Below, piece by piece: positions 45,451 to 61,525 of a stretch of DNA of 64,000 nucleotides. This DNA is from Eubacteriales bacterium (GTDB lineage Bacteria; Bacillota; Clostridia; Oscillospirales; CAG-382). The stretch spans positions 159,228 through 223,227 of the forward strand of contig JAQWDK010000001.1 of NCBI GenBank assembly GCA_028705495.1. The letters are read 5' to 3'. Position numbers and translations under genes: made by a program. Position 1 is the first letter of the stretch, and every line of letters begins with the position of its first letter. The notes beneath the pieces were generated by a model. The model saw only the letters and a list, made by a program, of their open reading frames with translations. It was not told where the DNA came from and did no database searches.

Positions 45451-45486
45451 CCATCTAAGCACAAGATGATTCTTGTGTTTAGATGG
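45451..45486. promoter_or_regulatory. 16-bp inverted repeat upstream of parA
   Basis: ccatctaagcacaaga-tgat-tcttgtgtttagatgg has 16 pairs with one G-T. It ends 24 nt before the AGGAGG of parA. Confidence 0.35.
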
Positions 45487-45522
45487 ATCGTAAGATTCAA
45501 ATTTGACGAAAGGAGGAAACCG

Positions 45523-46350
45523 ATGAGCAAATGCAAGGTGATTGCCATTGCAAACCAAAAAGGTGGTGTAGGAAAAACTACTACAGCGATGAACTTAGGT
45601 GTTGGATTGAGTAAGAAAGGAAAACGAGTTCTTCTTGTCGATGCCGATCCACAGGGTAGTTTGTCTATCAGTCTCGGAATTAAAAATCCTGACAATCTCG
45701 ATGTAACATTATCTACTGTGCTTCAGGATAATATGAACGAAACTGAAAATCAAGCCGAATACGGAATTATTCATCAATCTGAGGGAGTCGATTTATTACC
45801 AGCTAATATCGAACTCTCTGCTTTTGAGGTAGGACTGATTAATTCGATGAGTCGTGAGTACGTGATGAAAAATTATTTATCTAGCATCAAAAAGAACTAC
45901 GACTATGTTTTAATTGATTGTATGCCTTCCCTTGGTGTAGTGACAATCAACACTCTTGTAGCAGCCGACTCAGTTATCATTCCATCACAACCAAGCTTTT
46001 TATCTACCAAAGGTATTAACCAGCTTGTACGCTCGATTGCGAGGGTAAGAAAACAAATTAATCCGAACTTACAGATTGACGGAGTTCTTTTTACAATGGT
46101 AGACAGTAGAACTATTAATGCGAAATCTATCATTTCTTCAATGAGGACTTCCGGTTATCCCATTCGGGTTTTTGAGTCGGAAATACCGAAGTCGGTAAAA
46201 GCGGCTGAGAGTAATCTTGAAGGAAAAAGTATCTTTTCTCACAACAAAGACGGTAAAGTTGCGGTAGCTTACGAAGCGTTAACAAAGGAGGTGTTAGGAC
46301 TTGACGAGCGCCAAAGAGATCGAGTTAGGACTTCGGGATGCGTTAGATGA
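45523..46350 (+). CDS. parA: ParA/Soj-family partition ATPase
   Basis: KVIAIANQKGGVGKTTT is the deviant Walker A. ATG 45523 follows AGGAGG; the track start at 45445 is upstream of the RBS. Confidence 0.9.
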   Translation: MSKCKVIAIANQKGGVGKTTTAMNLGVGLSKKGKRVLLVDADPQGSLSISLGIKNPDNLDVTLSTVLQDNMNETENQAEYGIIHQSEGVDLLPANIELSAFEVGLINSMSREYVMKNYLSSIKKNYDYVLIDCMPSLGVVTINTLVAADSVIIPSQPSFLSTKGINQLVRSIARVRKQINPNLQIDGVLFTMVDSRTINAKSIISSMRTSGYPIRVFESEIPKSVKAAESNLEGKSIFSHNKDGKVAVAYEALTKEVLGLDERQRDRVRTSGCVR

Positions 46351-47251
46351 ACTCTTTATGGATGATGCTGGTAAAAAAGAGAGCCGGCTTCCAAAAATCT
46401 ACGACATCTCATTAAACGAAATTGATGACTTTCCCGATCATCCATTTAAAGTACGGCTTGATGAAGATATGGAGCATTTGGTGGAAAGCATTAAAGAGCG
46501 AGGTCTTATCACCCCTATCACACTGCGTAAAAAAGAGGACGGACGATATGAAATTGTATCGGGACATCGCCGCAGAAAAGCGTGTGAGATTGCAGGACTT
46601 CAAACGGTAAGAGCAGAAATCAAGGAGCTTAACCGTGATGATGCTATTATATTAATGGTTGAAAGCAACTTGCAGAGGTCTGTTATATTGCCCAGTGAAA
46701 AAGCATATGCGTATAAAATGCGACTCGATGCCATGAAACGACAAGGGCAGCGAACAGATTTAACTTCTTCTCCACTGGATAATAAGTTAAAAGGCGTTAC
46801 TGTTGCGCAGAAGATCGGTGACGAAACTGGTGATAGTCAACCACAAATCTATCGTTATGTTCGCTTGACAAATCTTGTTCCTGAGATATTGGATTTAGTT
46901 GACGAGGGCAAAATTGCACTTCGGCCTGCTGTGGAACTGTCATATCTCAAAGAAGAAGAACAGACAGCTGTTGTTGAAGCGATTAAGTGCGATGATTGCA
47001 CGCCATCACACGCACAGACCATTAAAATGAGGAAGTTTTCATCGGATGGCAGGCTCTCGGAAGATGTAATTGATTCAATTATGAGTGAGCAGAAGCCGAA
47101 TCAGTTTGAAAAGATCAGCTTCAAATATGACAACATACGAAAATTTATACCGCTTTCTATACCGTACAAAGATACCGAGCAATATATCCTAAAAGCTCTC
47201 GAACACTACCAGCGATACAGAGAGCGTCGGAAGAACGAGCAGACAAGATAA
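46301..47251 (+). CDS. parB: ParB/Spo0J-family protein
   Basis: ITPITLRKKEDGRYEIVSGHRRRKACEIAGL (the GxRR box) plus an HTH region. It overlaps the end of parA. Confidence 0.85.
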   Translation: MTSAKEIELGLRDALDELFMDDAGKKESRLPKIYDISLNEIDDFPDHPFKVRLDEDMEHLVESIKERGLITPITLRKKEDGRYEIVSGHRRRKACEIAGLQTVRAEIKELNRDDAIILMVESNLQRSVILPSEKAYAYKMRLDAMKRQGQRTDLTSSPLDNKLKGVTVAQKIGDETGDSQPQIYRYVRLTNLVPEILDLVDEGKIALRPAVELSYLKEEEQTAVVEAIKCDDCTPSHAQTIKMRKFSSDGRLSEDVIDSIMSEQKPNQFEKISFKYDNIRKFIPLSIPYKDTEQYILKALEHYQRYRERRKNEQTR

Positions 47252-47313: not shown

Positions 47314-47649
47314 ATGAAATATGTAGTTAAAATTCGTAAAACTTATACAAATCGTGGTGCGTTGAAGGCTATTGCCAGCGTTACCATAGACGAAGCTTAT
47401 GTCGTTCACGGTGTAAAGGTTATTGAAACCGATAAGGGTAGATTTATAGCTATGCCGGGTGAAGCCCAGAAAGATAAGGATGGCAAAGCTACTCGCCGTG
47501 ATGTGTTCCATCCCATAAATGCAAAGGCACGTGGAAAGCTCGAAGCTGTCGTACTCAAAGCCTACGATGAGGAAATCAACAAGGCAAATACTGAGCCTGC
47601 CGAAACCGAAGCAACCCCCGTATCCCCCGAAACATCCGAAAACAACTAA
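47314..47649 (+). CDS. spoVG: SpoVG-family protein
   Basis: LKAIASVTIDEAYVVHGVKVIETDKGRFIAMP and DVFHPINAKAR match SpoVG. A Pro/Glu/Thr-rich tail follows. Confidence 0.8.
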   Translation: MKYVVKIRKTYTNRGALKAIASVTIDEAYVVHGVKVIETDKGRFIAMPGEAQKDKDGKATRRDVFHPINAKARGKLEAVVLKAYDEEINKANTEPAETEATPVSPETSENN

Positions 47650-47675: not shown

Positions 47676-47909
47676 ATGAAGAAGTTTTTCAAGAAAATTG
47701 CAAAAAAGTTCAACAATGCAGCTATCGCTGTTCAGTCCACAGTTTCCAACATCAAAGCAGAAGGCTATGTAGATTCTGGTGTAAAAATCCTTATCGCCGT
47801 AGTCATTGGTGCTTTGCTCCTCGGTGGTCTTTATGTTCTGTTCAATACAACTATCATACCAACTGTGACTTCTAAGATCACTGGTCTTTTTAGCTACACC
47901 GGTAAGTAA
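47676..47909 (+). CDS. Candidate major pilin (class III-type leader, hydrophobic core)
   Basis: A 77-aa protein. The basic leader ends ...NIKAEGYVDSG and is followed by the hydrophobic helix VKILIAVVIGALLLGGLYVLF. It shares the EGY motif with the two minor-pilin-like ORFs. Confidence 0.4.
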   Translation: MKKFFKKIAKKFNNAAIAVQSTVSNIKAEGYVDSGVKILIAVVIGALLLGGLYVLFNTTIIPTVTSKITGLFSYTGK

Positions 47910-47986
47910 TCTGATTCCAAATCGACCTAATGGGCAGGATGTCTAATCATCTTGCCCCAAATTCTATATTACAGGAGGCAATCGCA

Positions 47987-48955
47987 ATGAGCGACTTATC
48001 ACAACTTATTATTGACGAAGAATTTGAAAGAGTCATTCCTCCCCTTGAAGACGATGAATTCAAACAACTGAGAAACAATATCTTGCAGGATGGTGAGGTA
48101 TATCATCCCATTACGGTCTGGAACAACATTATTGTGGACGGACATCACCGCTACAAGATATTAAAGGAGCATCCGGAAATAAGCTTTCGAATTTGTGAAA
48201 AACACTTTGAAAATCGTTTTGAAGCAGTTTCTTGGATATGCTTAAATCAACTCGGTCGCAGAAACCTTTCAAACATACAAAAGGTCGCTCTTATGGGGCG
48301 TAGATTTCGTTCTGAAAAAGAATCGCACGGTGCAAGTGACGGGTTCAGAGGGAATAAATTTACGGCATCTTTAGTAACGCATCAAAATGATGCGTTACCA
48401 GAGGATAGCCATATAACAGCAAACAGAATAGCTTTTGAAATGGGGGTTGCGAGACCAACAGTTGAGCGAGCTGAAAAATTTGTTGACGGTTTAGATGCAG
48501 CTGAAGAAGTTTGTCCTGGTATAACAAGAGAAATTATGTCCGGTAAAATTAACCCAAGGCAATCCGATGTGGCAGCTATCGCTAAGGTACCGATTGAAAA
48601 GCGAATAGAACTTGCAGAAAGTTTACGTGCTTATGACAGGAAACTTTCAGATGATCAAAAAAAAGAAAGAAAACAAAAGATGGAGTTAAAACGTTCGATC
48701 GAAAAACTCGATGCAATGCACACGAACCCCAACAACCCAAAGGTTTCTGCAGAAAGTATGCTGAACAGCTTACGATCCGATGTTACAAGAGCAACACAAA
48801 CAATGGAATTCTACTTTCGTGAGTTTCCTGAAATACTTACAGAACAACAATATAGAAGCGAGGTGCAAAATGCACTCAATATAATGAAAGATTATATTAA
48901 AAACTTGGAGGAACAATTATATGCTAAACACTTTATATCGAATGCAGGAAATTAA
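47987..48955 (+). CDS. ParB N-terminal (sulfiredoxin-fold) domain protein
   Basis: YHPITVWNNIIVDGHHRYKILKEH. ATG 47987 follows AGGAGG. Confidence 0.7.
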   Translation: MSDLSQLIIDEEFERVIPPLEDDEFKQLRNNILQDGEVYHPITVWNNIIVDGHHRYKILKEHPEISFRICEKHFENRFEAVSWICLNQLGRRNLSNIQKVALMGRRFRSEKESHGASDGFRGNKFTASLVTHQNDALPEDSHITANRIAFEMGVARPTVERAEKFVDGLDAAEEVCPGITREIMSGKINPRQSDVAAIAKVPIEKRIELAESLRAYDRKLSDDQKKERKQKMELKRSIEKLDAMHTNPNNPKVSAESMLNSLRSDVTRATQTMEFYFREFPEILTEQQYRSEVQNALNIMKDYIKNLEEQLYAKHFISNAGN

Positions 48956-49676
48956 TAGCACAGAATTAAATGTTGACCGGGATCTATACCAAAGAAAGAA
49001 GCACATGGACAAGGTATCACGTATCGTTTCTGTATGGGACGAGCGAATTGCTAATGAACCAAAGGTTAGTTACCGCAACGGAAAATTCCATGTGTTCGAT
49101 GGTCAACATACCATTCTCGCTCGTGAAGCACTCAACAATGATAAGCCGGTAGATATTCTTTGTAAAGTTTATACCGGACTTTCTGCACATGATGAAGCAT
49201 TGCTCTTTGCACTACAAATGGGTATATCTTCAAAGCCGAGTTCTGGTGAACGACTTCGTGCAAATATTTTCGGTGAAGAAGCCGAAGCAATTGCATTTTG
49301 TAAGGCAACAACAATTGCCGGTTTGAATATTGATTTGAGGGGTGTCAGACATAAGGGACACCTCGGCTGTGTAAGTACCGCTTTAAAAGCATACAGAGCA
49401 CTTGGCGAAGAACAGTATATTAAAGCAATGCAAATCATTTTTGATGCATGGGGTGGAAAATCTGATTCATTGCGCTTCGAAATCGTAAAAGCGGTAACAG
49501 AGTTTGTCGAGCTAACCGGAGACGATTTTGAGCGAGATAAGCTTGTAAAGAAGCTGAGTGCTATAAGCCCGATGACAATCCGTGATAAAATCAATTCAGA
49601 TACCGAAACACCTTCAAATAAAAAATACGCCTATCAGATTATGAAGGTACTAAGAGGAAGAAGTAAGGCGGCATAA
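48921..49676 (+). CDS. ParB/Srx-fold protein with DGQHT motif
   Basis: NGKFHVFDGQHTILAREAL resembles the DGQHR/DndB-ParB-like motif. It overlaps the upstream gene. Confidence 0.5.
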   Translation: MLNTLYRMQEINSTELNVDRDLYQRKKHMDKVSRIVSVWDERIANEPKVSYRNGKFHVFDGQHTILAREALNNDKPVDILCKVYTGLSAHDEALLFALQMGISSKPSSGERLRANIFGEEAEAIAFCKATTIAGLNIDLRGVRHKGHLGCVSTALKAYRALGEEQYIKAMQIIFDAWGGKSDSLRFEIVKAVTEFVELTGDDFERDKLVKKLSAISPMTIRDKINSDTETPSNKKYAYQIMKVLRGRSKAA

Positions 49677-49677
49677 G

Positions 49678-50325
49678 GTGGTGACGAATATGATGATCCG
49701 ACCTATAACTCCGTGGATATTAACCTCATCTGAGAACTTACAAACAGATTGGTGGATTATCCTTTTACTTATAATTGTATCAGGATTTGCGGCGATGTTT
49801 CTCGGCTTTGCAAGCTCTAAGAAGTTTTTTGATGATAAACGCAAGACAGGACTATTATTCACAGGAATTGCTGTATCAATGTCGATCATTTTAATCTGTT
49901 TTTTTGGATGTGCTATGAGTACAATTAAGGGTATCGTTTTATCCCTTATACTCTTAGTATCTTCCTATTCTGATATTAAACGCAGAGAGGTAGAAGATTA
50001 CCTTTCATTAATGGTTGTTCTCACAGCTTTCATAGGAATTGAAATCTCACAAATCCCATTCGCAATCCTGTCCGCTATTATTGTAAGTATCCCTACTATC
50101 TTAGTTTGCATTTTATGTGAAGGCAAAACTATAGGCGGTGCAGATATTAAACTAACAGCTGCTTGTGCTATGGTTATTGGAGTTTGGGGTGGATTAATAG
50201 GATTGATGATAGGATTAACGCTCAGCATTATCGTAAATCTGGTGATTCAGAATAAAGATAAAGAAGAAACATTTCCTCTTATACCTTACCTTGCTACCGG
50301 GTTTATGGTGGCATATTTCATTTAA
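49678..50325 (+). CDS. A24-family prepilin peptidase (TadV/CpaA-like)
   Basis: A polytopic protein with the two catalytic Asp contexts, SSYSDIKRREVEDY and GGADIKLTAAC. Confidence 0.75.
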   Translation: MVTNMMIRPITPWILTSSENLQTDWWIILLLIIVSGFAAMFLGFASSKKFFDDKRKTGLLFTGIAVSMSIILICFFGCAMSTIKGIVLSLILLVSSYSDIKRREVEDYLSLMVVLTAFIGIEISQIPFAILSAIIVSIPTILVCILCEGKTIGGADIKLTAACAMVIGVWGGLIGLMIGLTLSIIVNLVIQNKDKEETFPLIPYLATGFMVAYFI

Positions 50326-50340
50326 GGAGAAAAAACCAAA

Positions 50341-51066
50341 GTGAAAAACAGAACAATAATCGGCATTATATGTATGGCTTTTGCCATTGCAATCACTTTC
50401 CTTGTTGCTCCGCTTGTAACTCGAATGGCGAGTGATAGCATTACGGTGTTGTGTGTTGCAGAAGATTTGAAACAGGGCGTGCAGATTACAGAGGTTGACA
50501 TTACCGCCGTTGAAGCAAAAAAGGGAAGCACGCCAGAAGGTGCAATTACAGAAAAAGCACAGATTATCGGCAGATACGCAACCTCCAATCTTTTTGCGGG
50601 TGACTTCTATACAGCATCTAAGCTGAAGAACGAAGCAAATACTGCTTCTGATGTATTTGCTTTACTTGATGGTTCGCAAGTTGCTATCAGCTTTACAATC
50701 GGAAACTTCGCCGCAGGCCTTTCGGGCAAGTTAGAAAACGGCGATATTATTAGTATTATCATAACCGAAAAGGGCAATGACAAGACTTTTATCCCTGAAT
50801 TACTTAAGTATGTAAGAGTAATTACTACAACAACTAGTGGCGGTATTGATAAGGAATCGGTGGTTTTCAATGACGACGGAACTTATGACCTTCCCACAAC
50901 CGTAACAGTTCTTGTAACACCCGAACAGGCACAAGTTATTGCCTGTTATGAAGATAGTACTAAGATGCAAACCGCTCTTGTTTATCGTGGAGATAAGGAG
51001 AAAGCTCAGAAGTTCCTTGATAAGCAAACTGAATACTTATTGAAAGGAGAAACTACCAGTGAATAA
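50341..51066 (+). CDS. CpaB/RcpC-like Flp pilus assembly protein (SAF domain)
   Basis: An N-terminal TM, then ITVLCVAEDLKQGVQITEVDI, a SAF-like segment. Confidence 0.65.
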   Translation: MKNRTIIGIICMAFAIAITFLVAPLVTRMASDSITVLCVAEDLKQGVQITEVDITAVEAKKGSTPEGAITEKAQIIGRYATSNLFAGDFYTASKLKNEANTASDVFALLDGSQVAISFTIGNFAAGLSGKLENGDIISIIITEKGNDKTFIPELLKYVRVITTTTSGGIDKESVVFNDDGTYDLPTTVTVLVTPEQAQVIACYEDSTKMQTALVYRGDKEKAQKFLDKQTEYLLKGETTSE

Positions 51067-51772
51067 AATGATTGCTGTTTGCGGCTCTCCAAATAGCGGA
51101 AAGACATCTATTGCATTAAAACTTGCTCAGGAGATCTACTACTCTGAGCAGAAACCAGTGTTATTCGTTTCTCCCGACATTACAACACCTTCAATGGGGC
51201 TTCTATTTCCCAATAGTAAAGAATCGGATTTGTATTCTATGGGTGTGGCACTAGATAAAACTGACATTTACCGTGAAGATGTTTTGAAACAGTCTGTTAC
51301 TGTAAAGACGATGAAAAACTTCGCATTGATGGGATATAAGCTGACGGAAAACGAGTACAGCTATCCGAAGCCTACCGAAGATAAAGTTAAAGAATTTATA
51401 AGAGCTATGAGAGAAATTGCGGAATATATCGTGGTGGACTGCACCTGTGATAAAAATGATCTTGTTTCTACTATGTCTATGTCTGCTTCTGATACGCTTA
51501 TTCAGCTTGTAACTCCCGATATTAAGTGCCTGACATATTATTCTTCGCAGACTGTCCCAATACACGATAACAAAGTACTTGTTATGAATATCAGGGACAA
51601 TGACTTGTATCTCCCTACCGAAGAAGTTAAGTCGCATTTTAAAGAGGTCAAGTTCGTTCTTCCATACAGTCGACCTCTTAAACAGCAAGGCATTACCGGT
51701 TCGCTTTTGAAAAGACTTTCTGATGGTAAATTTTACGCAAAGCTTTTAGAACTTGCCGAGGTGGTTATTTGA
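51059..51772 (+). CDS. ParA/MinD-like ATPase (TadZ/CpaE-like)
   Basis: P-loop MIAVCGSPNSGKTSIALKLA, positioned before the CpaF-type ATPase. Confidence 0.6.
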   Translation: MNKMIAVCGSPNSGKTSIALKLAQEIYYSEQKPVLFVSPDITTPSMGLLFPNSKESDLYSMGVALDKTDIYREDVLKQSVTVKTMKNFALMGYKLTENEYSYPKPTEDKVKEFIRAMREIAEYIVVDCTCDKNDLVSTMSMSASDTLIQLVTPDIKCLTYYSSQTVPIHDNKVLVMNIRDNDLYLPTEEVKSHFKEVKFVLPYSRPLKQQGITGSLLKRLSDGKFYAKLLELAEVVI

Positions 51773-53097
51773 TGGAAACAAACGACAAAATAATCTCTGT
51801 TCTATTGTCTGTACAAGAATATATTTCCCGAAACTATGCGGCATCACTCACCGATCCAAGCAAGTTTAAGCAAATCAAGCCATATATCGAAAAGTTCCTT
51901 CGAGATCATTCTTTGTCGGTCAGCGGTATGACGAATAAACAGCTTGTAGATAAGCTTTATAGCGAAATGGCGGAATACTCTGTGCTGACACAGTATCTCG
52001 GACGTGATGAGCTTGAAGAAATCAATGTAAACGGCTGGAACGACATTGCTATCACTTACATAGATGGTCACATAGAAAAAGCAGCAGAGCATTTTTATTC
52101 TCCGCAACACGCTGTAGATATTGTAAAGCGACTTTTGCATCATTCGGGAATGATTATCGACAACGCAACCCCAATGTCACAGGGACATTTGCCGGGCAAC
52201 ACACGTATTACAGCGCTGAAAGAACCAATTGTTGACGAAGAAAGAGGTATAAGCGTTTCTATTCGTCTTTTGCATCCAAGCAGAGTAAACCGTGCCGAAC
52301 TTGTAAAAGGAAGTAACGCAACACAAAAAATGATTGATTTTCTCTGTATGTGTATGAGGTATGGTGTTTCTTTCGTTGTGGCGGGTGCTACTTCTTCGGG
52401 GAAGACAACACTCTTAAACGCCCTTTTAACTTCTGTCCCCGACAACAAGCGTATCTTCACCATCGAAAGTGGATCAAGAGAACTTTCGCTTGTGCGAGTA
52501 ATGGATGGAAAAGTTACGAACAATGTGGTTCATACACTATCTCGTCCTTCAGATAACCTTGCCTATGACATTTCACAAGAGGACTTAGTGGTGGCATCTT
52601 TACGTTTTAACCCTGATATTGTATGCGTGGGTGAAATGAGAGATGTTGAAGCCTATTCAGCAGTAGAAGCAAGTCTTACCGGACACACGGTTGTGTCAAC
52701 GATTCACGCATATGCAGCAGAGTCAGCTCATATGAGATTGGCACTGCTTTGTCAAAAGCGGTTTCCCATTAACTTTGATACATCCCTTATGCAGGCAGGA
52801 CAGGCATTTCCCATCGTTGTCTATGTACATAAGTTGGAAGATAACACACGAAAGATTATGGATATTTCTGAGTGTATTATATCGGACGGCGGTAAAAAGC
52901 AGTATCGAACTCTATTCCGTTATAAAATAACCGAAAATAAAATTGAAGAAGATCACATTAAAATTGTCGGACACTTTGAACAGCTTGAAATTATAAGTGA
53001 TGGACTAAAACAAAAGCTTATGCAATCAGGGGTACCGCAGAGTACGCTTAATAAATTTCTTACGAAAGGAGTTGATTACGATTGCTCTTTTCAATAA
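51769..53097 (+). CDS. cpaF: CpaF/TadA-type secretion ATPase
   Basis: Walker A AGATSSGKTTLLNAL, VGEMRDVEA, and His box GHTVVSTIHA. Confidence 0.9.
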   Translation: MMETNDKIISVLLSVQEYISRNYAASLTDPSKFKQIKPYIEKFLRDHSLSVSGMTNKQLVDKLYSEMAEYSVLTQYLGRDELEEINVNGWNDIAITYIDGHIEKAAEHFYSPQHAVDIVKRLLHHSGMIIDNATPMSQGHLPGNTRITALKEPIVDEERGISVSIRLLHPSRVNRAELVKGSNATQKMIDFLCMCMRYGVSFVVAGATSSGKTTLLNALLTSVPDNKRIFTIESGSRELSLVRVMDGKVTNNVVHTLSRPSDNLAYDISQEDLVVASLRFNPDIVCVGEMRDVEAYSAVEASLTGHTVVSTIHAYAAESAHMRLALLCQKRFPINFDTSLMQAGQAFPIVVYVHKLEDNTRKIMDISECIISDGGKKQYRTLFRYKITENKIEEDHIKIVGHFEQLEIISDGLKQKLMQSGVPQSTLNKFLTKGVDYDCSFQ

Positions 53098-54005
53098 TTT
53101 CTTCGGTATTGCTTATCATAAGCATTGCGTTTCTTTTCGGTCTTACTTCTGAAAGAATTACTGACGATATGATGGCGGTACTCAAACCTAATGACACACT
53201 TAAAAATAAAACCAAAAACCTTCGTGAGAAAAAGAAAAAGCACTCCCTGTACAGAGCACTTGTCAGATTGAGAACAGCACTTAGTGTTACGGGAAAATCA
53301 AGGCAATTTATAATTGTCTTCTGTGCTTCTATTGGTTTTTTTGTAGCAGGTGTTTTGATTTCGATTCTCTTAAACAATATCTATCTTATGCCGGCGTTGT
53401 CAGTGGCTTTTGCACTTCTTCCATTCTTCTATACCACAAACACGTTTTCGTATTATGAGAATTATATCAAAGAGGAGCTTGAAACAACGCTGTCTATTAT
53501 AACTACTTCCTATGTTCGCAGTGATGATATACTGACTGCGGTAAAAGAAAATCTGCAATATATCCATCCTCCCCTGAACGATGCATTCCGTTCCTTTTTA
53601 GGTGAAGCGACTATTGTATCTTCTAATACCAAACAGGCACTTAATAATTTGAAAGACAAAGTGGATGATGAAATCTTTGTAGAATGGTGCGAAACACTTA
53701 TTCAATGCCAAGATGACCGAACTCTGAAAGATACTCTGCAATCGATTGTTGTGAAGCTTACCGATGTTCGTCTTATCAACAGTGAACTAAAAACAATGCT
53801 TTCATCTGCAAGGAGCGAGTATTGGGTTATGGTGGCTCTTGTTGTCGGCAACATTCCGCTTCTATACCTTTTGAACAAGGAATGGTATCAGACACTTATG
53901 TACACCACACATGGCAAGATAGTGCTTGGCATCTGTGGCTTAGTAATTCTTGTAACGGCTCTGTTTATGATGAAATTCACAAAGCCGATAAACTATAAAA
54001 GATAG
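53082..54005 (+). CDS. TadB-like platform protein (T2SS-F family)
   Basis: An N-terminal TM, a central soluble helical region and C-terminal TMs. It follows the ATPase and overlaps its stop. Confidence 0.6.
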   Translation: MLFSIISSVLLIISIAFLFGLTSERITDDMMAVLKPNDTLKNKTKNLREKKKKHSLYRALVRLRTALSVTGKSRQFIIVFCASIGFFVAGVLISILLNNIYLMPALSVAFALLPFFYTTNTFSYYENYIKEELETTLSIITTSYVRSDDILTAVKENLQYIHPPLNDAFRSFLGEATIVSSNTKQALNNLKDKVDDEIFVEWCETLIQCQDDRTLKDTLQSIVVKLTDVRLINSELKTMLSSARSEYWVMVALVVGNIPLLYLLNKEWYQTLMYTTHGKIVLGICGLVILVTALFMMKFTKPINYKR

Positions 54006-54019
54006 GAGGTGCTTTTAAT

Positions 54020-54889
54020 TTGTTACAGGCAATAATCGGTGTGCTTTGCGGTATTGGGCTGTTCTTTGTCATTTTAGATTTGAAGCATATTCCTTATGTT
54101 AAGACTTCAAAGGCTGTGAAAAACATTTCAAAGAAAAATAAAGACAAAACAAGCTCCCTTGATATTTGGCTCAAAGGCATTGCCACTGGGCTGTCCAAAA
54201 AGATCAAGCTTAACGAATTCAAACGTTCTCAGCTTGAAAGCGACTTGAAAACCGCACAAATGGACATTACCCCTGAAATGTTCAAAGCAAATGCGGTTGT
54301 AAAAGCCGGTATCATCGGTATTCTTGCTATCCCCGTAGCATATATATTCCCGCTATTTTGTCCGGTGGTTCTCTTTATGGCAGTATTCCTTTATTCCCAT
54401 GAATCTAAGAGCGTGAGTATGCGTATAAAGGATAAGCGAAGAAAGATAGAGTATGAATTGTTGAGATTAGCGTTCAATGTTGAAAAGACACTCAAACACA
54501 ACCGTGATGTGCTCTATATGCTCGAAAATTATTCTAAACACGCAGGTGCTGAGATGAAGTCCGAGCTTGAAATTGCCATTGCAGATATGAAGTCCGGCAA
54601 CTACGAAGCCGCACTAACACGGCTTGAAAGCCGTGTGGGTTCGGCCCTTATGAGTGATGTCTGCCGTGGTCTTATCGGTATTCTCCGTGGCGATAATACT
54701 GAAATGTATTGGGCGTCTCTTATTATAAAGTTCAAAGATATTCAAAGACAACAGCTTCGCTTAGAAGCACAAAAAATGCCGAGAAAAGTTAAACGACTTT
54801 CAATGTGCTTGCTTGTTAGCTTTATGCTTATCTATGTAGTCGTCATCATCACTCAAATTATGAGTTCTGTCGGTGTACTTTTCGCCTAA
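54020..54889 (+). CDS. TadC-like platform protein (T2SS-F family)
   Basis: Same topology as the previous gene; the two form a paired TadB/TadC arrangement. Confidence 0.6.
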   Translation: MLQAIIGVLCGIGLFFVILDLKHIPYVKTSKAVKNISKKNKDKTSSLDIWLKGIATGLSKKIKLNEFKRSQLESDLKTAQMDITPEMFKANAVVKAGIIGILAIPVAYIFPLFCPVVLFMAVFLYSHESKSVSMRIKDKRRKIEYELLRLAFNVEKTLKHNRDVLYMLENYSKHAGAEMKSELEIAIADMKSGNYEAALTRLESRVGSALMSDVCRGLIGILRGDNTEMYWASLIIKFKDIQRQQLRLEAQKMPRKVKRLSMCLLVSFMLIYVVVIITQIMSSVGVLFA

Positions 54890-54902
54890 TTGGAGGTGCG
54901 TT

Positions 54903-55310
54903 ATGAATAGAATTTGGAATAAAAAAGGCGAAGGTTATATCGACACCTGTGTAATGGTGGTCGTGTTTGTCATGATATTGGTAGTTGCTATAAATATCTT
55001 TTCTTTTATCACACTGAAAGTAGATATGGATGAAATTGCTGACGAGTTAATTGAAACAGCGGCATTTACAGGCGAGTTCGGTGATAATTTTTGGAAACGA
55101 AATGAAGAATTGCAAGCTATGTATTTTTATTACGATGTAGATTATTCTGCAGAAGAATACTTTAACTCTGCACTTGAACGGGTTCAGCTTGGAGATACAA
55201 TGACAGTCACCATTATTATTGACACCTATATCAAAGGACTTGGTATTTTCAAAATACCTGTTACGCTCCAGGTAACAAAAACACAGATCTCGGAAAAGTA
55301 TTGGAAGTAA
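54903..55310 (+). CDS. Minor pilin / TadE-like protein
   Basis: MNRIWNKKGEGYIDTCVMVVVFVMILVVAINIF is a short basic leader, the EGY motif and a hydrophobic helix. ATG follows GGAGGTG. Confidence 0.5.
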   Translation: MNRIWNKKGEGYIDTCVMVVVFVMILVVAINIFSFITLKVDMDEIADELIETAAFTGEFGDNFWKRNEELQAMYFYYDVDYSAEEYFNSALERVQLGDTMTVTIIIDTYIKGLGIFKIPVTLQVTKTQISEKYWK

Positions 55311-55322
55311 AGGCGGTGCGTG

Positions 55323-55799
55323 ATGAATTTACTAAATAAAAAGGGCGAAGGCTATGTCTTTCCCTGTGTGATGATAGTCATTGTTTGCTTTATTCTTTCG
55401 GTACTAATTTATTTTATTTGTACCGTTTCGATGATACGAAATATAAAGGAAAACTGTAAGACTGTTTTTGACAGTTATATCACAAAGCAGTCCATTGAAA
55501 TTTATAACTCCGTGAAGCAAGGAAATGATGATATTTCCTACTTGGATCAGGAAGAATTCCTTACCGACTTTTGCAGATTTTGCACATTGGAAAGTAAAAG
55601 CGGACTATTATATAATTATGATAGTGAAAGAAATCTTAACTACTATATGACAACCCCGTATATCTCTTTTATTGAAGCAAGCTCATTAAAAATGAAAGTA
55701 ACTTTTACTTTATATGTGCCAATCCGCTTCAACGGCGCATGGATAACGACAGCTGTTATTCCGGTAGAAATAAAATCATCGTTTATGGAAAGGTACTAA
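55323..55799 (+). CDS. Minor pilin / TadE-like protein
   Basis: MNLLNKKGEGYVFPCVMIVIVCFILSVLIYF has the same leader architecture. Confidence 0.5.
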   Translation: MNLLNKKGEGYVFPCVMIVIVCFILSVLIYFICTVSMIRNIKENCKTVFDSYITKQSIEIYNSVKQGNDDISYLDQEEFLTDFCRFCTLESKSGLLYNYDSERNLNYYMTTPYISFIEASSLKMKVTFTLYVPIRFNGAWITTAVIPVEIKSSFMERY

Positions 55800-55810
55800 A
55801 GGAGGAACCA

Positions 55811-56548
55811 ATGAAATTATTAAAAAACAAAAATGTACTTATTGGCGGTAGCGTAACGTTACTTCTCGTAATTGCAATCGTTGTAGCGTGTATCTGTATT
55901 CCAAGTAAAGATACAGAACCTGCTGTTATTCTCGATGAAAGCACAAAACAAACTTCGGACACAATGGTAGGTATTACGGATACTTCTCAAATAACTAAGC
56001 CTGAATCCTCAGAAACCGAGAAAGACATTTCAGAAGTTTCTAACGGCGGTTCTATACTGACTCCAGATGAAAGCAAAGACGAAGCTTCTACACCCGATGA
56101 AACAAGGGGTGAAAAGGCAAAAGAGCCTGCAACTCCAGTTCAGGACAAAACGATTGACATTCCGGAACTCGAAGAATCATCAAGCGCAGTTGTTGTAATC
56201 GGTGACGGTGGCGAGGCAGAACCTTATGATTGCGGAGTTTCCGGACATCATTGCGACGGTCCTGAAACACACGCAAACATTCAAAACCTGGAACTTGAAG
56301 GGTGCCCGAATTGCGGTTCTCATTCCTGTCTAAGCTTCTATGCAACTGACGAATGGGGTAACACTTGCTATACACCGAGTAAGTGTCCGAGTTACAACAT
56401 AGAGAAAGATCCACTTCATTTTTGTCAAGCCTGTGGCAAAAAGAACGGTGATGGTACAAACGGAACTTGTTGTATCTTTGTTGTTGATACAACTTGTCCC
56501 CTTTGTGGTAAATCAGTAGAAGCTTGGTCTTGCCATACTTGCGACTAA
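55811..56548 (+). CDS. Membrane-anchored Cys-rich protein
   Basis: ATG follows AAAGGAGG. It has an N-terminal TM, an acidic/Ser-Thr-Pro linker and a C-terminal region with many CxxC pairs (CPNCGSHSC, CQACGKK, CPLCGK, CHTC). Confidence 0.55.
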   Translation: MKLLKNKNVLIGGSVTLLLVIAIVVACICIPSKDTEPAVILDESTKQTSDTMVGITDTSQITKPESSETEKDISEVSNGGSILTPDESKDEASTPDETRGEKAKEPATPVQDKTIDIPELEESSSAVVVIGDGGEAEPYDCGVSGHHCDGPETHANIQNLELEGCPNCGSHSCLSFYATDEWGNTCYTPSKCPSYNIEKDPLHFCQACGKKNGDGTNGTCCIFVVDTTCPLCGKSVEAWSCHTCD

Positions 56549-56627
56549 AATAGAATATCTCGCTAAGAAAGCTTGACTAAAATAGTTAAGTTTTCTTTTT
56601 GTAAAAAATTAGAGAAAGGATGCGTTT

Positions 56628-59543
56628 ATGAAACAGAAAACAATAAAGATATTTGCTTTTCTAATTGGACTTTTCATTCTACTTTCTGTCTGTTACGTTT
56701 CCGTTTTTGCCCTTGAATGGGATGGAAGCTCAACGGGCGGTGGCGGTGCAGGCGTTTCCGCCGATGTGCGTGGCTTTTCTATAAGAACAACTGGTGATAA
56801 TGTTATCGGTTACCGATTTTCTATCGTAAATAAAAGCGGAGCAAATAAAGTTTCTAAAGTAATTGATGTATTTCGCAACAATTATTACGGTAATTACGCT
56901 TACACTTATGCATATAAGTTTAGCACAAAGTATAATAAGAAGCAACTAATAAACTATCAGAACAGCGGCTTTAAAACATCAAGAAATTCTACAAACTGTT
57001 ATAAGGAAGCAGATATGGGCTTTATAACATCGCTTCCAATAGCAAGCGGTATGTCTACTTGGCAGCAATATGCAGGAAATCTTAATAGTGTACTGTCAAA
57101 GTTAGGCGCAGGGACATTATCTTCACTAAAAAACGGTGATAAGATTATTGTTGAACCACTTTATGATGTAATGCTTGAAACGGTATATCATGCTCCAACA
57201 GTCACCGAGCTTGCCCTTTACGGGAAATATTTTTTAGGTTCAAATAATGACGGAGGTGCAAGCTCAACAGCATCGAGCTGGGGATTTATTGCAGCATATA
57301 CAAACAGGCATTATCCCAATGAATTATACACTCCCGATGGTCAAGGACTTTGGACTTCGGTAACAGCACTCCAAAAGCGAGCAACTTTCTATACGATAAT
57401 TAACTCCGGTTACGGTGTTGGTATCGCTTATATCGAAACAAAGTCTGACTTTTCACCGAACTTGACAGTACAAAAATGTGAAGCTTGGCCTGGTACTACA
57501 AGTACACGAAATAGCAATCACTACGGTGTCAGCACAGGAGACAGCTTTGCAACTTGGATTTACGGATATAGTTATCCCAGATCAGGTGATTCTATTTGGT
57601 ATGCGTTGTATTTCCCAGCTGAAACAGAAAATTGTTATGTAAAGCAAACGGTTTGGGTGGTCGGTGGTGGTTCAACTTCCCGTAATGTTTGGTCTAATTC
57701 CAACACTTGGTATGATGTAGCTTTGAGTCCGACAACGATTACTTCATCACAGAGTTATATCACAGTTAAGGTAAGAGTAGACTGGCTTGATTCAAATGGT
57801 GTAGTACAGAAATACGGTGCAGAAAAGACCTTCTATATCCCGATCAAACCGCTTATCTACCGAAACAAAGTAACAATGTACGATTATGTAGGAAATGTAG
57901 CAGCATATGACAGCACAAGCGGAAGCAGTGGTAAAGTTTATGTCGGCCAAAAGACCTACACCGATTACACCTACACTTCCGGCAACTCTTGGGGTTCATC
58001 AAACAACTTAAATGGTGTTATGTTAAAGTGGTCGGGAAACGAATGGGTGCAAGATATTAGCTTAATTGATGCTGCTGTAAATAAGAATGGAGCTATACTC
58101 AGTTCAAGTAGCTCACAAACGTTGACAAGCAATATAGGAAATTTTAGAGTTACAGACGACAGCAGTTCGGGTTCCAACATCATCAGATATAAAATGACGA
58201 CAGCTTGGGCAAGCGATGCAATCAACACAATTGAATCTAGTTATTTTACTATACCCGTTGTAAAAGCTGATGTCCAGTTAGCAAAAATCTATCTTGTTGA
58301 TAAAGATGGCTATTATATAGAAGAACAAGATTTGATGGTCGGTCAAGAGGTCACGGTTCAATATAAATATTACAACAATACAGAATGTCAAATTTATGTT
58401 GAAGGCTTTGATGATATGAATAATAGTTTGGGTATATATGCGATGAGACCCTACTCGTATATCTATGTCTATGGACGAACATTTACTGTTCCTGACTCTC
58501 GAACTTACAGCATTTGGGGTGGTGTTTATCTTGAAGGAGCTGGCTGGAATAAAACTGATTGGGAATCTAACGGTACAAACAATACTATGACTCTTACCTG
58601 TAAGGTCAATCATCCTGTAACCATTCAATGTATTTCTGCTAATGCAGCTTACAGAGAAGGAACCGATGTTATAACGAGTTTTTGGGTTAAGAGTGCAAAC
58701 GGCTTAGCATATACTCCGAGTTCTAATCTCAATATCAGAATTAGAATTTATAACAACTCTGGAACACCCATTAAGACAATAACAAAGACTCAGGTTCTCA
58801 TTCCATCAGATGATAAGAACTTGATTTATATTAAATGGTCTGTTCCACATGCTACAGGTGGCACCGTAAAAATAATAGCTGATGTGCTTAATAATGGAGT
58901 TTATTTTAACGAGGTAACAAAAGTCTATTCTACAACAACCTATACAGAAAGCCAAACGCCTGATACACAGTTTGAAAAGATAGCTCCGGCGGAATTTACG
59001 ACGTTAAGCTTCTCTACAAATACAAACAGTGTTGCAACATGGTATGAATACGCTTATGAGTCAGGATCGTTTGTCAAGAGACAGTATGGTTACGGCTTAT
59101 ATTTCAGAGAAGCGAAGATCGAACCAGCTACCGGGGTAACACACAAAAAGGTAAACGGAAAATGGTATATGAAGTCTGGGTATGGGATCTCTTTGACTTC
59201 AAGGAAAGATTCAACTGTTACGGTCAGCGGTTATCTTACTCCTTCAGCTAATGCATATACCTCAGCACAGTATTTTACAGCCGTGTTACCCGAATACATG
59301 TACAGTACGGAATCAGGCAAATGTACAACCCTTGTTGAGTCAGGCTCTACGGTGTCTTTCTCGACATTTGGGACTTATGGAAAGGTGCATTTTACACCGC
59401 TTTGGTTCCCTGATCAATATTATACGGTAGGAGTAATCTACTCCGATTGTTGGACGCCTTCTGGTATGCTAACAGTTAAAGGAGCCACAAACAGTATTAC
59501 CATTGATGGTTCAGCTTACGATGACCATTATATCGGTCACTAA
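56628..59543 (+). CDS. Large secreted protein (971 aa), candidate pilus-associated adhesin
   Basis: Signal peptide MKQKTIKIFAFLIGLFILLSVCYVSVFA. The body is beta-rich and Ser/Thr/Tyr-rich. There is no LPXTG or C-terminal TM. Confidence 0.6.
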   Translation: MKQKTIKIFAFLIGLFILLSVCYVSVFALEWDGSSTGGGGAGVSADVRGFSIRTTGDNVIGYRFSIVNKSGANKVSKVIDVFRNNYYGNYAYTYAYKFSTKYNKKQLINYQNSGFKTSRNSTNCYKEADMGFITSLPIASGMSTWQQYAGNLNSVLSKLGAGTLSSLKNGDKIIVEPLYDVMLETVYHAPTVTELALYGKYFLGSNNDGGASSTASSWGFIAAYTNRHYPNELYTPDGQGLWTSVTALQKRATFYTIINSGYGVGIAYIETKSDFSPNLTVQKCEAWPGTTSTRNSNHYGVSTGDSFATWIYGYSYPRSGDSIWYALYFPAETENCYVKQTVWVVGGGSTSRNVWSNSNTWYDVALSPTTITSSQSYITVKVRVDWLDSNGVVQKYGAEKTFYIPIKPLIYRNKVTMYDYVGNVAAYDSTSGSSGKVYVGQKTYTDYTYTSGNSWGSSNNLNGVMLKWSGNEWVQDISLIDAAVNKNGAILSSSSSQTLTSNIGNFRVTDDSSSGSNIIRYKMTTAWASDAINTIESSYFTIPVVKADVQLAKIYLVDKDGYYIEEQDLMVGQEVTVQYKYYNNTECQIYVEGFDDMNNSLGIYAMRPYSYIYVYGRTFTVPDSRTYSIWGGVYLEGAGWNKTDWESNGTNNTMTLTCKVNHPVTIQCISANAAYREGTDVITSFWVKSANGLAYTPSSNLNIRIRIYNNSGTPIKTITKTQVLIPSDDKNLIYIKWSVPHATGGTVKIIADVLNNGVYFNEVTKVYSTTTYTESQTPDTQFEKIAPAEFTTLSFSTNTNSVATWYEYAYESGSFVKRQYGYGLYFREAKIEPATGVTHKKVNGKWYMKSGYGISLTSRKDSTVTVSGYLTPSANAYTSAQYFTAVLPEYMYSTESGKCTTLVESGSTVSFSTFGTYGKVHFTPLWFPDQYYTVGVIYSDCWTPSGMLTVKGATNSITIDGSAYDDHYIGH

Positions 59544-59567: not shown

Positions 59568-59607
59568 AACAGTTAGCGGCGGTGTGAAAGCATCGCCGCT
59601 AACTGTT
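59568..59607. terminator. Perfect 14-bp hairpin; A-tract upstream, no T-tract downstream
   Basis: aacagttagcggcg (59568-59581) / cgccgctaactgtt (59594-59607). On the minus strand it would read as a canonical intrinsic terminator. Confidence 0.4.
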
Positions 59608-59622
59608 GCGAATGGAGTTTAT

Positions 59623-60234
59623 ATGGACGAAGAAAAAAGGTATGCCGACACCTATGAGATTATCCACTCTTTCAAAATCGGAAGAACGGAAGTTGTCATC
59701 GGTGAGGATCAAAAAAAAACCGAAAATCAGTATATTGTTGCCAACTACGAAGATAACGGAATCATCGGCAGGTATTTTGATGTTGTAGGAAGTGAAGATT
59801 ATGCAGAAATTGTAGCCATTTATTCAACGAGAATTACCATTGAAGCAACGAAAGTCCGTGATGAAAACGAGGTTAAAATTGCAGGCTATGACAGTACGCT
59901 TATCGGTCTTGATAGGTGCGATAAAACTACTTGGGAGGACGATATTTACGACAAAATCATTGTTATCAAGCCCACTTCCCTGAGAAGAGAGTTTCGCACT
60001 CCTTTGCACCAATTAAAAGTCGTAACTGGCGGTTTCGGTGCCTCTGCAAAATCCAGAGGTCAGTCAGTTTTTTGCAAAGACTTGTTTACCAGCAAGGTTA
60101 CAAGATATGACCGCACTGATGTTCTCGGCACCATTGAAAAAGATAATCTTCCGATGTGGGCAAAAACATTTATAAAAGAAAACGAGAAAAAGATTGAGAT
60201 AAAGAAGTCTCCGACTTCGAGGGTGGAGCGATGA
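59623..60234 (+). CDS. Hypothetical protein (element-associated)
   Basis: ATG 59623 follows AATGGAG. The track start at 59584 lies inside the hairpin. Confidence 0.5.
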   Translation: MDEEKRYADTYEIIHSFKIGRTEVVIGEDQKKTENQYIVANYEDNGIIGRYFDVVGSEDYAEIVAIYSTRITIEATKVRDENEVKIAGYDSTLIGLDRCDKTTWEDDIYDKIIVIKPTSLRREFRTPLHQLKVVTGGFGASAKSRGQSVFCKDLFTSKVTRYDRTDVLGTIEKDNLPMWAKTFIKENEKKIEIKKSPTSRVER

Positions 60235-60282
60235 ATGTAAAAAGTGAGGTGAACCGAAATGTACGAAGACGAATTCAACGAA

Positions 60283-60420
60283 TATGAAAACAACGGCGAA
60301 GACTGTATCATAAGGTTCACCAAAGAACAATATGATGAAATCGTGACTCTTGCCTTAGATTGCGGTTTGAGTGTCAAAGAGCTTATTTTTCATCGATTAT
60401 TCGGTAGCATGGAATTGTAA
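60283..60420 (+). CDS. Possible 45-aa ribbon-helix-helix-like protein
   Basis: MKTTAKDCIIRFTKEQYDEIVTLALDCGLSVKELIFHRL has the beta-strand/helix/helix pattern of MobC/CopG-type proteins. It is below the ORF-track size cut-off. Confidence 0.3.
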   Translation, partial: YENNGEDCIIRFTKEQYDEIVTLALDCGLSVKELIFHRLFGSMEL

Positions 60421-60428
60421 AGGAGCAG

Positions 60429-61382
60429 ATGCAAATGGAATTACGAGCAATGACACCCACAGAGCGTATGTATATATATGCTCAAAGTTCGCAAATCAGC
60501 AGACAGACGGGACTGATCGGACACCTTCGTGCCGATATGGATACTGACGGTCAAGGCTTTTTCTCCACTTGGTTTGATTACCGCAAAGACCTTAAAACAG
60601 ACTCGTTTAAGACAGAGTTTGACGAGGTTATGGATGCTTGCCGATTTAGTGACAAATACGGGCACATGCTTGGTGATAGAGAGCTGATGAAGCGGTATTG
60701 TTGCGATCATCCTGATGCCGGGTTTGAAGGTAGCTGCACCACTATATACGGCTTCCGCATAGATACGGATAACTTTGCTTATCTGTTACGGCTAAACCCT
60801 CAAAAGGGTGATTATAACCTGTACTGCTACTGCTACCGTAGAGATTGGCTTGACAGCCATCTGCAAAAAGCCGAGCGAGGTATTCTCTTTATTACCCCAA
60901 ATTATGATGAGAAGTTTCGTATTTTAGACGGAGATAAAGTTCGTGTGACTTATTATGACGGCGAAACCAAAGACTACACTTGTAGATATATCGACGATTA
61001 TCACGTGGAGGTCGGAGATAACCTTTATCATATTTGCGAGCTTGCCGAGCGTATGGAGCAAAACGGAAACAAGGTTATACCTCTTCGTTCTTCTTTGCCT
61101 GAACAGTGCTATTCCACGCTTGCCACATCAAAGGAAATTATCATCTTAAAGCGTGGCGAATCAGGATATTACAGAACGGATATTGAGTATCAGAACCAAG
61201 AGGAATCGAGAAAAATCGTTGATGCTTGCAACGCAGAGCTTGGCGTTACGAAAGCACAAGAGGAAGCAATGAAAGCCGGTTCGATGTTCGGCTTTGAAGT
61301 TCCCGGCGCTGATCCTAAAAACTACAACGATAACGGAAAGCCACTGAAGCTGAAACATAAAGACAGAGATGATGTTAGATGA
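60429..61382 (+). CDS. Hypothetical protein (element-associated)
   Basis: A 317-aa ORF. I cannot name a family with confidence. Confidence 0.5.
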   Translation: MQMELRAMTPTERMYIYAQSSQISRQTGLIGHLRADMDTDGQGFFSTWFDYRKDLKTDSFKTEFDEVMDACRFSDKYGHMLGDRELMKRYCCDHPDAGFEGSCTTIYGFRIDTDNFAYLLRLNPQKGDYNLYCYCYRRDWLDSHLQKAERGILFITPNYDEKFRILDGDKVRVTYYDGETKDYTCRYIDDYHVEVGDNLYHICELAERMEQNGNKVIPLRSSLPEQCYSTLATSKEIIILKRGESGYYRTDIEYQNQEESRKIVDACNAELGVTKAQEEAMKAGSMFGFEVPGADPKNYNDNGKPLKLKHKDRDDVR

Positions 61383-61525
61383 TTGACACTTGTGTTTGCT
61401 ATGGTGAAATTGTATCGGAAGGCAGAATGGTATGCCCAAAATGCGAAACCTCTGACGAAAGGAGCGATGTTGATGTCGAAGAAAAAATACGTGATCTGGA
61501 GCAACGCAGATCTAAATGTCAATGA
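61379..61525 (+). CDS. Possible 48-aa zinc-ribbon protein
   Basis: MIDTCVCYGEIVSEGRMVCPKCE... Its ATG shares an ATGA overlap with the upstream stop. It overlaps the next gene's start. Confidence 0.3.
   Translation: MIDTCVCYGEIVSEGRMVCPKCETSDERSDVDVEEKIRDLEQRRSKCQ

Follow-up and report, generated by a model that had tools for sequence, protein, structure and literature searches.

Conjugation in Gram-positive bacteria is, in the textbook view, pilus-free and proceeds via wall-anchored adhesins or chance contact. Element-encoded type IV pili are found in diderm bacteria, where the thin pili of R64 (IncI) and TP114 (IncI2) and the PAPI-1 pilus are encoded next to VirB4/VirD4-type genes, have exchangeable adhesin parts and are thought to bind recipients (PMC12857230; PMC9045228). 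The nearest described parallel to the system studied here are the thaumarchaeal integrative and conjugative elements (ICEs), which, in cells that have no outer membrane, join VirB4 and VirD4 to TadC, FlaI/PilT ATPases, a prepilin peptidase, pilins and ParB (PMC6563490). Here we explore a stretch of 64,000 nucleotides (nt), hereafter the window, that covers positions 159228-223227 of the 313-kb contig JAQWDK010000001.1 (C6) in the 2.55-Mb, 97% complete genome of an Eubacteriales bacterium; its DNA stems from landfill metagenomes. The genes at 47676-59543 are predicted to encode a type IV filament machine of the Tad/archaeal lineage, self-contained and highly divergent, and this filament module appears to be a fixed part of a family of clostridial conjugative elements. 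Strand (+) and positions are those of the window unless a contig is named.

A December 2025 review of type IV secretion system (T4SS) diversity gives type IV pilus-T4SS partnerships for IncI plasmids and PAPI-1 only and a type VII partnership for pRAW, and Tad is absent from its text (PMC12857230). A type IV filament survey reports Tad systems in Clostridia as frequently transferred and draws no link to conjugation (PMC6668835), and a C. difficile genome paper does no more than list such genes, on a contig suspected to be a plasmid (PMC5337907). A full-text literature search, with subscription-only papers outside its reach, yielded no description of a Tad-type module in Gram-positive conjugative elements. 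The predicted function suggests that what is new is a coupling of a type IV pilus, of Tad/archaeal type, with conjugation in monoderm bacteria.

Relatives of the module ATPase were collected by a pattern search in a set holding one genome per species, and gene order around the best 80 of the 321 relatives was read by tblastn. These 80 come from several clostridial families, and their CpaF identity of 71-81% agrees with horizontal spread. Essentially all sufficiently long loci have the order (ParA-ParB)-SpoVG-pilin-peptidase-CpaB-NTPase-CpaF-TadB-TadC-DUF4320-pilin2-Cys-large protein-three unknowns-polyvalent protein, and the conservation of this order in 80 genomes is more than chance. The ParA gene is kept upstream in many related loci and the SpoVG-like gene immediately precedes the pilin in most of the 80. 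At the other end, the Cys-rich gene comes after minor prepilin 2 in most loci, homologues of the genes for 216, 317 and 221 amino acids (aa) follow that of the large, 971-aa protein in many, and both arrangements recur in two further copies of the element in the same genome (B and C; the window holds copy A). Nearest relatives of the module genes carry Acutalibacteraceae, Lachnospiraceae, Oscillospiraceae, Ruminococcaceae and Christensenella labels. Landfill, wastewater, gut and rumen are the habitats of the hosts, which makes a target in host tissue unlikely.

The survey of gene-order recurrence that an initial annotation of this DNA had proposed thus finds the module in 80 species-level Clostridia genomes and, beyond these, on plasmids of Firmicutes, namely Terrisporobacter pTPHSE1, an Oscillospiraceae plasmid and Clostridioides plasmids, as well as on metagenome contigs. 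On these plasmids and contigs it stands directly upstream of VirD4, VirB6-like, VirB3-like, VirB4 and cell-wall hydrolase genes. A search for near-identical DNA on plasmids returned none.

Linkage to VirB4 was followed in two samples. Within the host family DUF4320, the family of the first minor prepilin, is patchy (8 of 101 genomes, 6 of 15 genera, often in several copies), and in all six cases on long contigs a co-directional VirB4 follows 23-34 kb downstream. Of 24 further genomes, 20 likewise have VirB4 downstream and on the strand of the module: the window-type VirB4 at 27-34 kb in 15, and an unrelated VirB4 of 624 aa at 11.6 kb in five. In the other four the element runs off the contig (three) or is a degraded copy in a genome with no VirB4 (one). 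Because five genomes pair the module with the unrelated 624-aa VirB4, it travels between different T4SS backbones; it is a cassette accompanying several of them, with at least two unrelated VirB4 lineages.

In the host genome, extension downstream, set beforehand as a check, located a relaxase, a coupling protein and VirB4 but no integrase. The order after the module, all on the + strand, is three unknowns, a 2617-aa methylase/SNF2 polyvalent protein, YodL, a NikA-like accessory gene, a MobA/VirD2 relaxase, an ArdC-N-like gene, VirD4/TraG, a weak TrbC/VirB2-like gene, a 278-aa VirB6-like gene, PrgI/VirB3 and VirB4. The relaxase has the MobA/VirD2 nuclease domain (1.5e-36), the coupling protein matches T4SS-DNA_transf (5e-46) and TraG-D_C, and the 804-aa VirB4, preceded by PrgI, matches P-loop_TraG, DUF87 and AAA_10. 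The genes for relaxase, coupling protein, PrgI and VirB4 follow the module on its own strand at a distance of 20-33 kb. A neighbourhood free of transfer genes, which the initial annotation had named as evidence against its proposal of a Tad-like apparatus encoded by a mobile element, is thus not what is seen, and the proposal is supported. The window element is a conjugative element with relaxase, coupling protein and VirB4, and neither integrase nor att site was found for it. A Secretin match is absent from the whole host genome, while a control search detects Secretin in six diderm genomes; the premise of a monoderm, Gram-positive host, also made at the outset, is therefore reasonable.

Compared with the Tad/Flp systems (Aggregatibacter tad, Caulobacter cpa, Bifidobacterium breve tad), the module shares a CpaF-type ATPase, an A24 peptidase without methyltransferase domain, a CpaB/RcpC protein, two putative single-domain platform proteins, a very small headless pilin and a single compact operon. 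It differs in its pilin, which belongs to DUF6133 and reads A|E-x-Y-V-D where Flp reads G|xxxxEY; in its minor pilins, which are DUF4320 and an unnamed family in place of TadE/F/G; in an NTPase with a classical Walker A; in having no secretin, as expected in a monoderm; in an added Cys-rich protein and a DUF8194/8195 giant protein; and in its location inside conjugative elements. With the R64, TP114 and PAPI-1 pili it shares the position of a type IV pilus cluster on an element, but those pili are of type IVb, belong to diderms and come with secretins and PilV shufflons, whereas the module is of Tad/archaeal type, monoderm and known from its genes alone. The thaumarchaeal ICEs are archaeal, not syntenic with it and likewise known from genomics only; the module proteins are bacterial, CpaF-like, and strongly conserved in order. 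Another partial likeness is to TIGR03819, the 'TadA family conjugal transfer-associated ATPase', for which curators suspected a conjugal role from the neighbourhood. Among NCBIfam models it scores second-best for the module ATPase, at 129 bits and thus far under its cut-off of 373 bits; the ATPase is not a member, and the TIGR03819 neighbourhood is actinobacterial (helicase/secretion) and also uncharacterised.

A second line of evidence comes from a leader common to three prepilin-like families, [KR][KR][GA]|[ED]-x-Y-[VI], in which a basic stretch is followed by an invariant G/A, an invariant E/D, a small residue, an invariant Y, V/I and about 20 hydrophobic residues. Among homologues collected from the 80 related loci, the motif A|E[GAT]YVD[ST]GV is present in 64 of 65 DUF6133 pilins, [KR][KR][GA]|EGY[IV]D in all 63 DUF4320 proteins and [GA]|[ED]GY[IV]..C in 59 of 62 homologues of minor prepilin 2. 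The putative cleavage site is placed after the G/A because this residue is invariant while the one before Tyr varies (G, A or T), and because Asp then stands invariantly at +5 in the pilin and DUF4320. An acidic residue would then occupy +1. Classical type IV pilins carry Glu5, which the Asp at +5 mirrors. A cut after the Gly of E-G-Y is less likely, as that position is G, A or T and the preceding [GA] is invariant. The leader resembles archaeal class III signal peptides.

All genes at 47676-59543 are co-directional with intergenic gaps of -35 to +79 nt, and each gene of the tightly spaced array that the initial annotation had listed lies where it had been put. The 13 genes of the module, like those of the backbone, all have intact open frames. 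The description of the array as a complete Tad/Flp set goes too far, since the pilin, the minor pilins and the protein at the TadZ position fall outside the Flp, TadE and TadZ families. The candidate pilin was rightly picked: besides its family match it has a basic leader, A|EGYVDSGVK, and then one hydrophobic helix, its single transmembrane segment. DUF6133 is its sole match, and its assignment to the Flp family fails on the different leader. The two minor prepilins, first called TadE-like, keep the prepilin leader; neither matches a TadE model and membership of TadE, TadF or TadG fails, one being DUF4320 and the other of an unassigned family. Minor prepilin 1 likely starts at ATG 54903.

The peptidase, the CpaB/SAF protein and the CpaF/TadA ATPase had been named correctly. 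The Peptidase_A24 match spans residues 86-186 of the 215-aa peptidase, which has five hydrophobic segments; D99 and G153-G-A-D156-x-K158 are at least 95% conserved in 47 homologues, so that both catalytic Asp are present, and the sole NCBIfam match is FlaK, weakly. RcpC and SAF scores of the CpaB-like protein both exceed the Pfam cut-offs, and its match to TIGR03177 pilus_cpaB (3e-18) reaches 66 bits against a cut-off of 71 bits. The best match of the ATPase in the PDB is Caulobacter CpaF (2.4e-29, residues 31-404), followed by archaeal GspE2/FlaI, with VirB11 well behind. A reading of this ATPase as the VirB11 of the T4SS was rejected, since CpaF and FlaI score higher; it is also countered by the dedicated peptidase and the three substrate-like proteins. 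For the P-loop NTPase at the TadZ/CpaE position, the P-loop was confirmed and the deviant Walker A of TadZ was not: its Walker A is classical (GSPNSGKT, with G9, P11, G14 and K15 conserved), it has no signature Lys, and it is a single domain. TadZ/CpaE membership fails on this Walker A and on the missing N-terminal receiver-like domain. Its profile finds MinD (1g3q, 2.8e-4) and ParA (3ea0, 0.008) in the PDB, and we read it as a distant MinD/ParA-like protein, not a canonical TadZ.

Of the two proposed platform proteins the second is supported as TadC-like by its modelled fold, and a T2SSF assignment at the sequence level was obtained for neither. An AlphaFold2 model of the TadC-like protein, built with 28 homologues, has a mean pLDDT (predicted local distance difference test) of 71.5, with 80-90 in the cytoplasmic domain, whose Foldseek top matches are PilC 2whn, OutF 5nbg, EpsF 3c1q/2vmb and SpoIIIAB only (probability 0.97-0.99, TM-score on target 0.56-0.70, E 0.1-0.9). 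Three of 30 family members match Pfam T2SSF (best E 0.046), the window protein has no Pfam match, and homologues are named 'secretion protein F', FlaJ or TadC by their sources. The modelled fold supports a GspF-type platform protein. The TadB-like protein has the size and topology of the TadC-like one, and the two families align weakly in hhalign, over 133 columns that cover the same domain (E 0.0011); no T2SSF match occurs in the 25 members searched, and it is a putative second platform protein.

Table 1. Features of the window and the three element copies of the host genome (window coordinates unless a contig is named).
Feature	Position	Strand	Evidence or remark
ParA partition ATPase	45445..46350	+	Pfam AAA_31 3e-60, CbiA
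ParB partition protein	46301..47251	+	Pfam ParB_N 5e-17, HTH_ParB
SpoVG-like protein	47314..47649	+	Pfam SpoVG 6e-25
Major prepilin candidate, DUF6133, 77 aa	47676..47909	+	Pfam DUF6133 4e-22
341-aa protein	47930..48955	+	no Pfam match, no PDB match
DUF6551 protein	48921..49676	+	Pfam DUF6551 4e-75
A24 prepilin peptidase, TadV/FlaK-like, without methyltransferase domain	49678..50325	+	Pfam Peptidase_A24 9e-10
CpaB/RcpC-like protein, N-terminal anchor and SAF domain	50341..51066	+	RcpC 2.6e-10, SAF 1.5e-7
P-loop NTPase at TadZ/CpaE position, 237 aa	51059..51772	+	weak AAA_31 1e-4
CpaF/TadA-type secretion ATPase (predicted pilus motor)	51769..53097	+	Pfam T2SSE 9e-31
TadB-like polytopic platform protein (putative)	53082..54005	+	topology, four hydrophobic segments
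TadC/GspF-like platform protein	54020..54889	+	fold-level support, AlphaFold and Foldseek
Minor prepilin 1, DUF4320	54873..55310	+	Pfam DUF4320 5e-28; leader KKG|EGYID
Minor prepilin 2, no family	55320..55799	+	leader KKG|EGYVF-PC; one transmembrane segment; no Pfam match
Membrane-anchored Cys/His-rich protein	55811..56548	+	N-terminal transmembrane segment, 17 Cys, three CxxC pairs
971-aa secreted multi-beta-sandwich protein (DUF8194/DUF8195)	56628..59543	+	N-terminal hydrophobic signal; AlphaFold2 model
Three conserved backbone genes (216, 317, 221 aa)	59584..62048	+	no Pfam match
2617-aa polyvalent protein, start	62182..64000	+	Eco57I-type methylase, SNF2/ResIII; runs past window end
Copy A	window, contig C6	+	window copy
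Copy B	contig C6:99433-132726	-	syntenic ParA to VirB4, protein identity 45-80%
Copy C	contig C40:81500-123000	+	syntenic ParA to VirB4, protein identity 35-80%

The last two genes of the array bear on a possible adhesive function, and the initial annotation of an anchored Cys-rich and a large secreted protein agrees with the features in Table 1. In the Cys-rich protein 12 Cys and 4 His are at least 95% conserved in 27 sequences. The AlphaFold2 model of the 971-aa protein (pLDDT 85.2) consists of one alpha/beta domain and then many beta-sandwich domains. Its homologues carry PF26614 and PF26615 (DUF8194, DUF8195), some also PF26613 (DUF8193), and some have inserted Listeria-Bacteroides repeats, which are surface-protein repeats. 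Foldseek matches are generic arrays only, of macroglobulin and immunoglobulin (Ig) domains, among them the Ig-like domains of PrgB; no sequence relatives were found in the PDB, and the fold permits no assignment of an enzymatic role. PrgB, the aggregation substance of pCF10, is likewise an element-encoded Ig-like surface protein and joins donor and recipient. Unlike PrgB, the 971-aa protein ends in ...DDHYIGH without an LPXTG-type ending and is linked to a filament machine, not to sortase anchoring. Divergence of both it and the Cys-rich protein outpaces that of the ATPase (identities of 28-65% and 71-81%, respectively). The 971-aa protein is a candidate adhesin. Copy C further encodes a 294-aa protein (contig C40:82514-83398, that is L099:16514-17398) in which an N-terminal DUF6133 prepilin is joined to a BspA-type leucine-rich repeat (LRR_5), by its domains a pilin-adhesin fusion. 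As a separate observation, Cys124 and His188 in the N-terminal alpha/beta domain (residues ~50-270) of the 971-aa protein are invariant in 56 homologues and might form a hydrolase-type active site; for that domain alone no fold or family assignment was obtained.

From this context we infer a role of the pilus in DNA transfer, and the context favours such a role over colonisation. Specifically, we give a probability of roughly 55% to a donor-encoded mating or recipient-capture pilus with exchangeable adhesive parts, which would make it the counterpart in monoderms of the R64/TP114 and PAPI-1 pili and of the pilus modules of archaeal ICEs. The A24 peptidase would cleave the shared leader of the DUF6133 major pilin and the two minor pilins, and the CpaF-type ATPase, assisted by the CpaB-like protein and the MinD-like NTPase, would polymerise the pilins through the cell wall on the TadB/TadC-like platform. 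Minor pilins would prime the pilus tip and the variable 971-aa beta-sandwich protein would give an adhesive surface, as may LRR-fused pilins in sister copies. The pilus could then capture a recipient and hold it against the donor, via retraction or simple tethering, after which the VirB4/VirD4 system of the element would transfer the relaxase-bound DNA.

A wider proposal is more tentative and falls short of even odds: that clostridial conjugative elements, as a large class, encode and assemble a Tad-type mating pilus of their own. This would be the first Gram-positive conjugative pilus, and efficient transfer would depend on it, in liquid or dilute communities at least; exchangeable adhesins (the DUF8194/8195 protein, pilin-LRR) would set the recipient range and the leader would define a private peptidase-substrate pair. 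The module would offer a concrete answer to how donors of abundant clostridial elements find recipients in gut, rumen and waste communities, and relatives of its ATPase in hundreds of species-level genomes (321) make the question a broad one. If true, it would also provide a way to approach the host range of those elements by which resistance and defence genes spread among anaerobes. It also widens the sequence space of type IV filaments, as pilin family, leader motif and accessory proteins are all new.

Several findings weigh against a mating pilus. Five of 11 host-family genomes with the window-type VirB4 have no DUF4320, though all five are on short contigs; the module may therefore be dispensable and its linkage to VirB4 not obligatory. 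The family tests for Flp, TadE and TadZ were negative and T2SSF was recovered at the fold level only, the module has no separate retraction ATPase, and no RNA runs containing the stretch were found. Linkage alone, moreover, cannot separate an aid to transfer from cargo that benefits the host, since Tad pili elsewhere serve surface adhesion. The module might accordingly be a moved adhesion, aggregation or biofilm pilus without a specific role in DNA transfer. Tad pili are colonisation or adhesion organelles in Aggregatibacter, Caulobacter and Bifidobacterium (PMC12786226), Tad loci are the most often transferred, plasmid-borne type IV filament systems (PMC6668835), and the genomes with VirB4 and no DUF4320 fit such cargo. 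We nevertheless regard cargo as unlikely. The module sits within the backbone, in the same orientation, between the partition and relaxase/T4SS genes and outside the variable slots that hold toxin-antitoxin and defence genes; it has been retained alongside no fewer than two unrelated VirB4 lineages, and compact plasmids have it immediately before VirD4; and three diverged copies, one per element, in a 2.55-Mb genome are hard to explain by host benefit.

A further point against the mating pilus is that no cell-wall hydrolase was found in the window copy. Together with the lack of a recognisable VirB8-like gene near VirB4, this could mean that the filament is a structural part of the transfer apparatus, either a short pseudopilus or piston that opens the wall or a chimeric conduit with VirB4/VirD4 of the kind proposed for PAPI-1. 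The tight linkage to VirB4 agrees with that, as does a review in which VirB4/VirD4 is described as working with a type IV pilus in PAPI-1 and with a type VII system in pRAW (PMC12857230). Related plasmids that bear the module, however, carry C40, NlpC/P60 or M23 hydrolases and VirB6-like genes, and hence a full Gram-positive T4SS; the window element, too, has VirB6-like, PrgI and VirB2-like genes, and the adhesin-type accessory proteins suggest an external filament. A structural role is in our judgement decidedly improbable. Scarcely credible is a pilus for DNA uptake or other recipient-side functions such as competence-like import. Type IV filaments, Tad-type included, drive DNA uptake in some bacteria (PMC8513845), and the archaeal Ups/Ced systems couple pili with DNA import (PMC11823120); but the module has no ComEA- or ComEC-like gene, the element already has an export-type system of relaxase and coupling protein, and there is no obvious gain for it in a host that imports foreign DNA.

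The boundaries of the window element also count against a functional mating pilus. No serine or tyrosine recombinase was found inside any of the three copies and no integrase in or beside the window element, nor were flanking repeats of at least 12 nt found for copy C, or an att site. Past VirB4 come, on the other strand, hipBA and a V-ATPase-like operon, chromosomal-looking genes, and the right end of the window copy may be truncated there. These features, together with toxin and AAA_14 genes inserted within the T4SS block and an interrupted coupling-protein gene, would be expected of a decaying, non-functional remnant. The interruption splits VirD4 in frame at residue 464/465 by 771 nt without an open reading frame (ORF) (C6:240925-241695, or L005:2698-3468; start ~17.7 kb past the window end), and VirD4 is uninterrupted in copies B and C. 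Its matches to Rfam group-II-D1D4-5 (177 bits) and to domain V/VI (Intron_gpII, 53 bits) identify it as a group II intron, not a decay lesion. With all module and backbone frames intact and catalytic and motif residues retained, a remnant is very unlikely, and a functional mating pilus is the reading we prefer. In the run that holds the stretch best, read-derived contigs (Logan) have an even depth of ~29-32 over chromosomal flank and element. DNA of the element flank finds no match in the one other genome of the same genus.

Within the operon, the 341-aa and DUF6551 genes (47930-49676) occur in none of the 80 related loci and not in copies B and C. They are a local insertion specific to the window copy, outside the conserved module. 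The initial annotation had given both a ParB fold. DUF6551 is a domain known in fusion with ParB-CTPase folds (preprint 10.1101/2025.10.10.680097), and in the 341-aa protein Pfam and PDB searches detected no ParB signature. Of the flanking genes it had named, ParA, ParB, SpoVG and TnpV were recovered, and the ArdC-N match of the 2617-aa polyvalent protein is weak (E 0.02). The TnpV-family frame (63017-63364; Pfam TnpV 5e-41) is nested out of frame inside the ORF of that protein, and copies B and C have nested frames there too, with 44-54% identity to it. Upstream lie AbiE, an AbrB/MazE-like gene, a LexA-like repressor and a sigma-70 region-4 protein.

Some details of the T4SS block were noted in addition. 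The TrbC/VirB2-pilin match of the small protein at L005:3896-4243 is weak (E 1.4e-4) and its relatives are annotated DUF3852, and the polytopic 278-aa protein (L005:4307-5143) corresponds to the TrbL/VirB6-like genes of related plasmids. Three insertions, namely a HipA_C-like gene, an AAA_14/DUF4143 ATPase and a ParE toxin (L005:5364-9152), separate it from PrgI; two further AAA_14/DUF4143 genes come after the polyvalent protein.

The three paralogous elements total ~130 kb of the genome. All keep pilin(s), peptidase, CpaB, NTPase, CpaF, TadB/C-like genes, DUF4320, the second minor pilin, the Cys-rich protein and the ~975-aa protein. Copy B has two pilin genes and copy C three, the third being the LRR fusion, and in copy C the Tad module stands before ParAB, not after. 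A fourth, distant CpaB/CpaF pair on a 15-kb contig (C1:606-3673), with 27-29% identity to the window proteins, may be a chromosomal Tad locus of another type.

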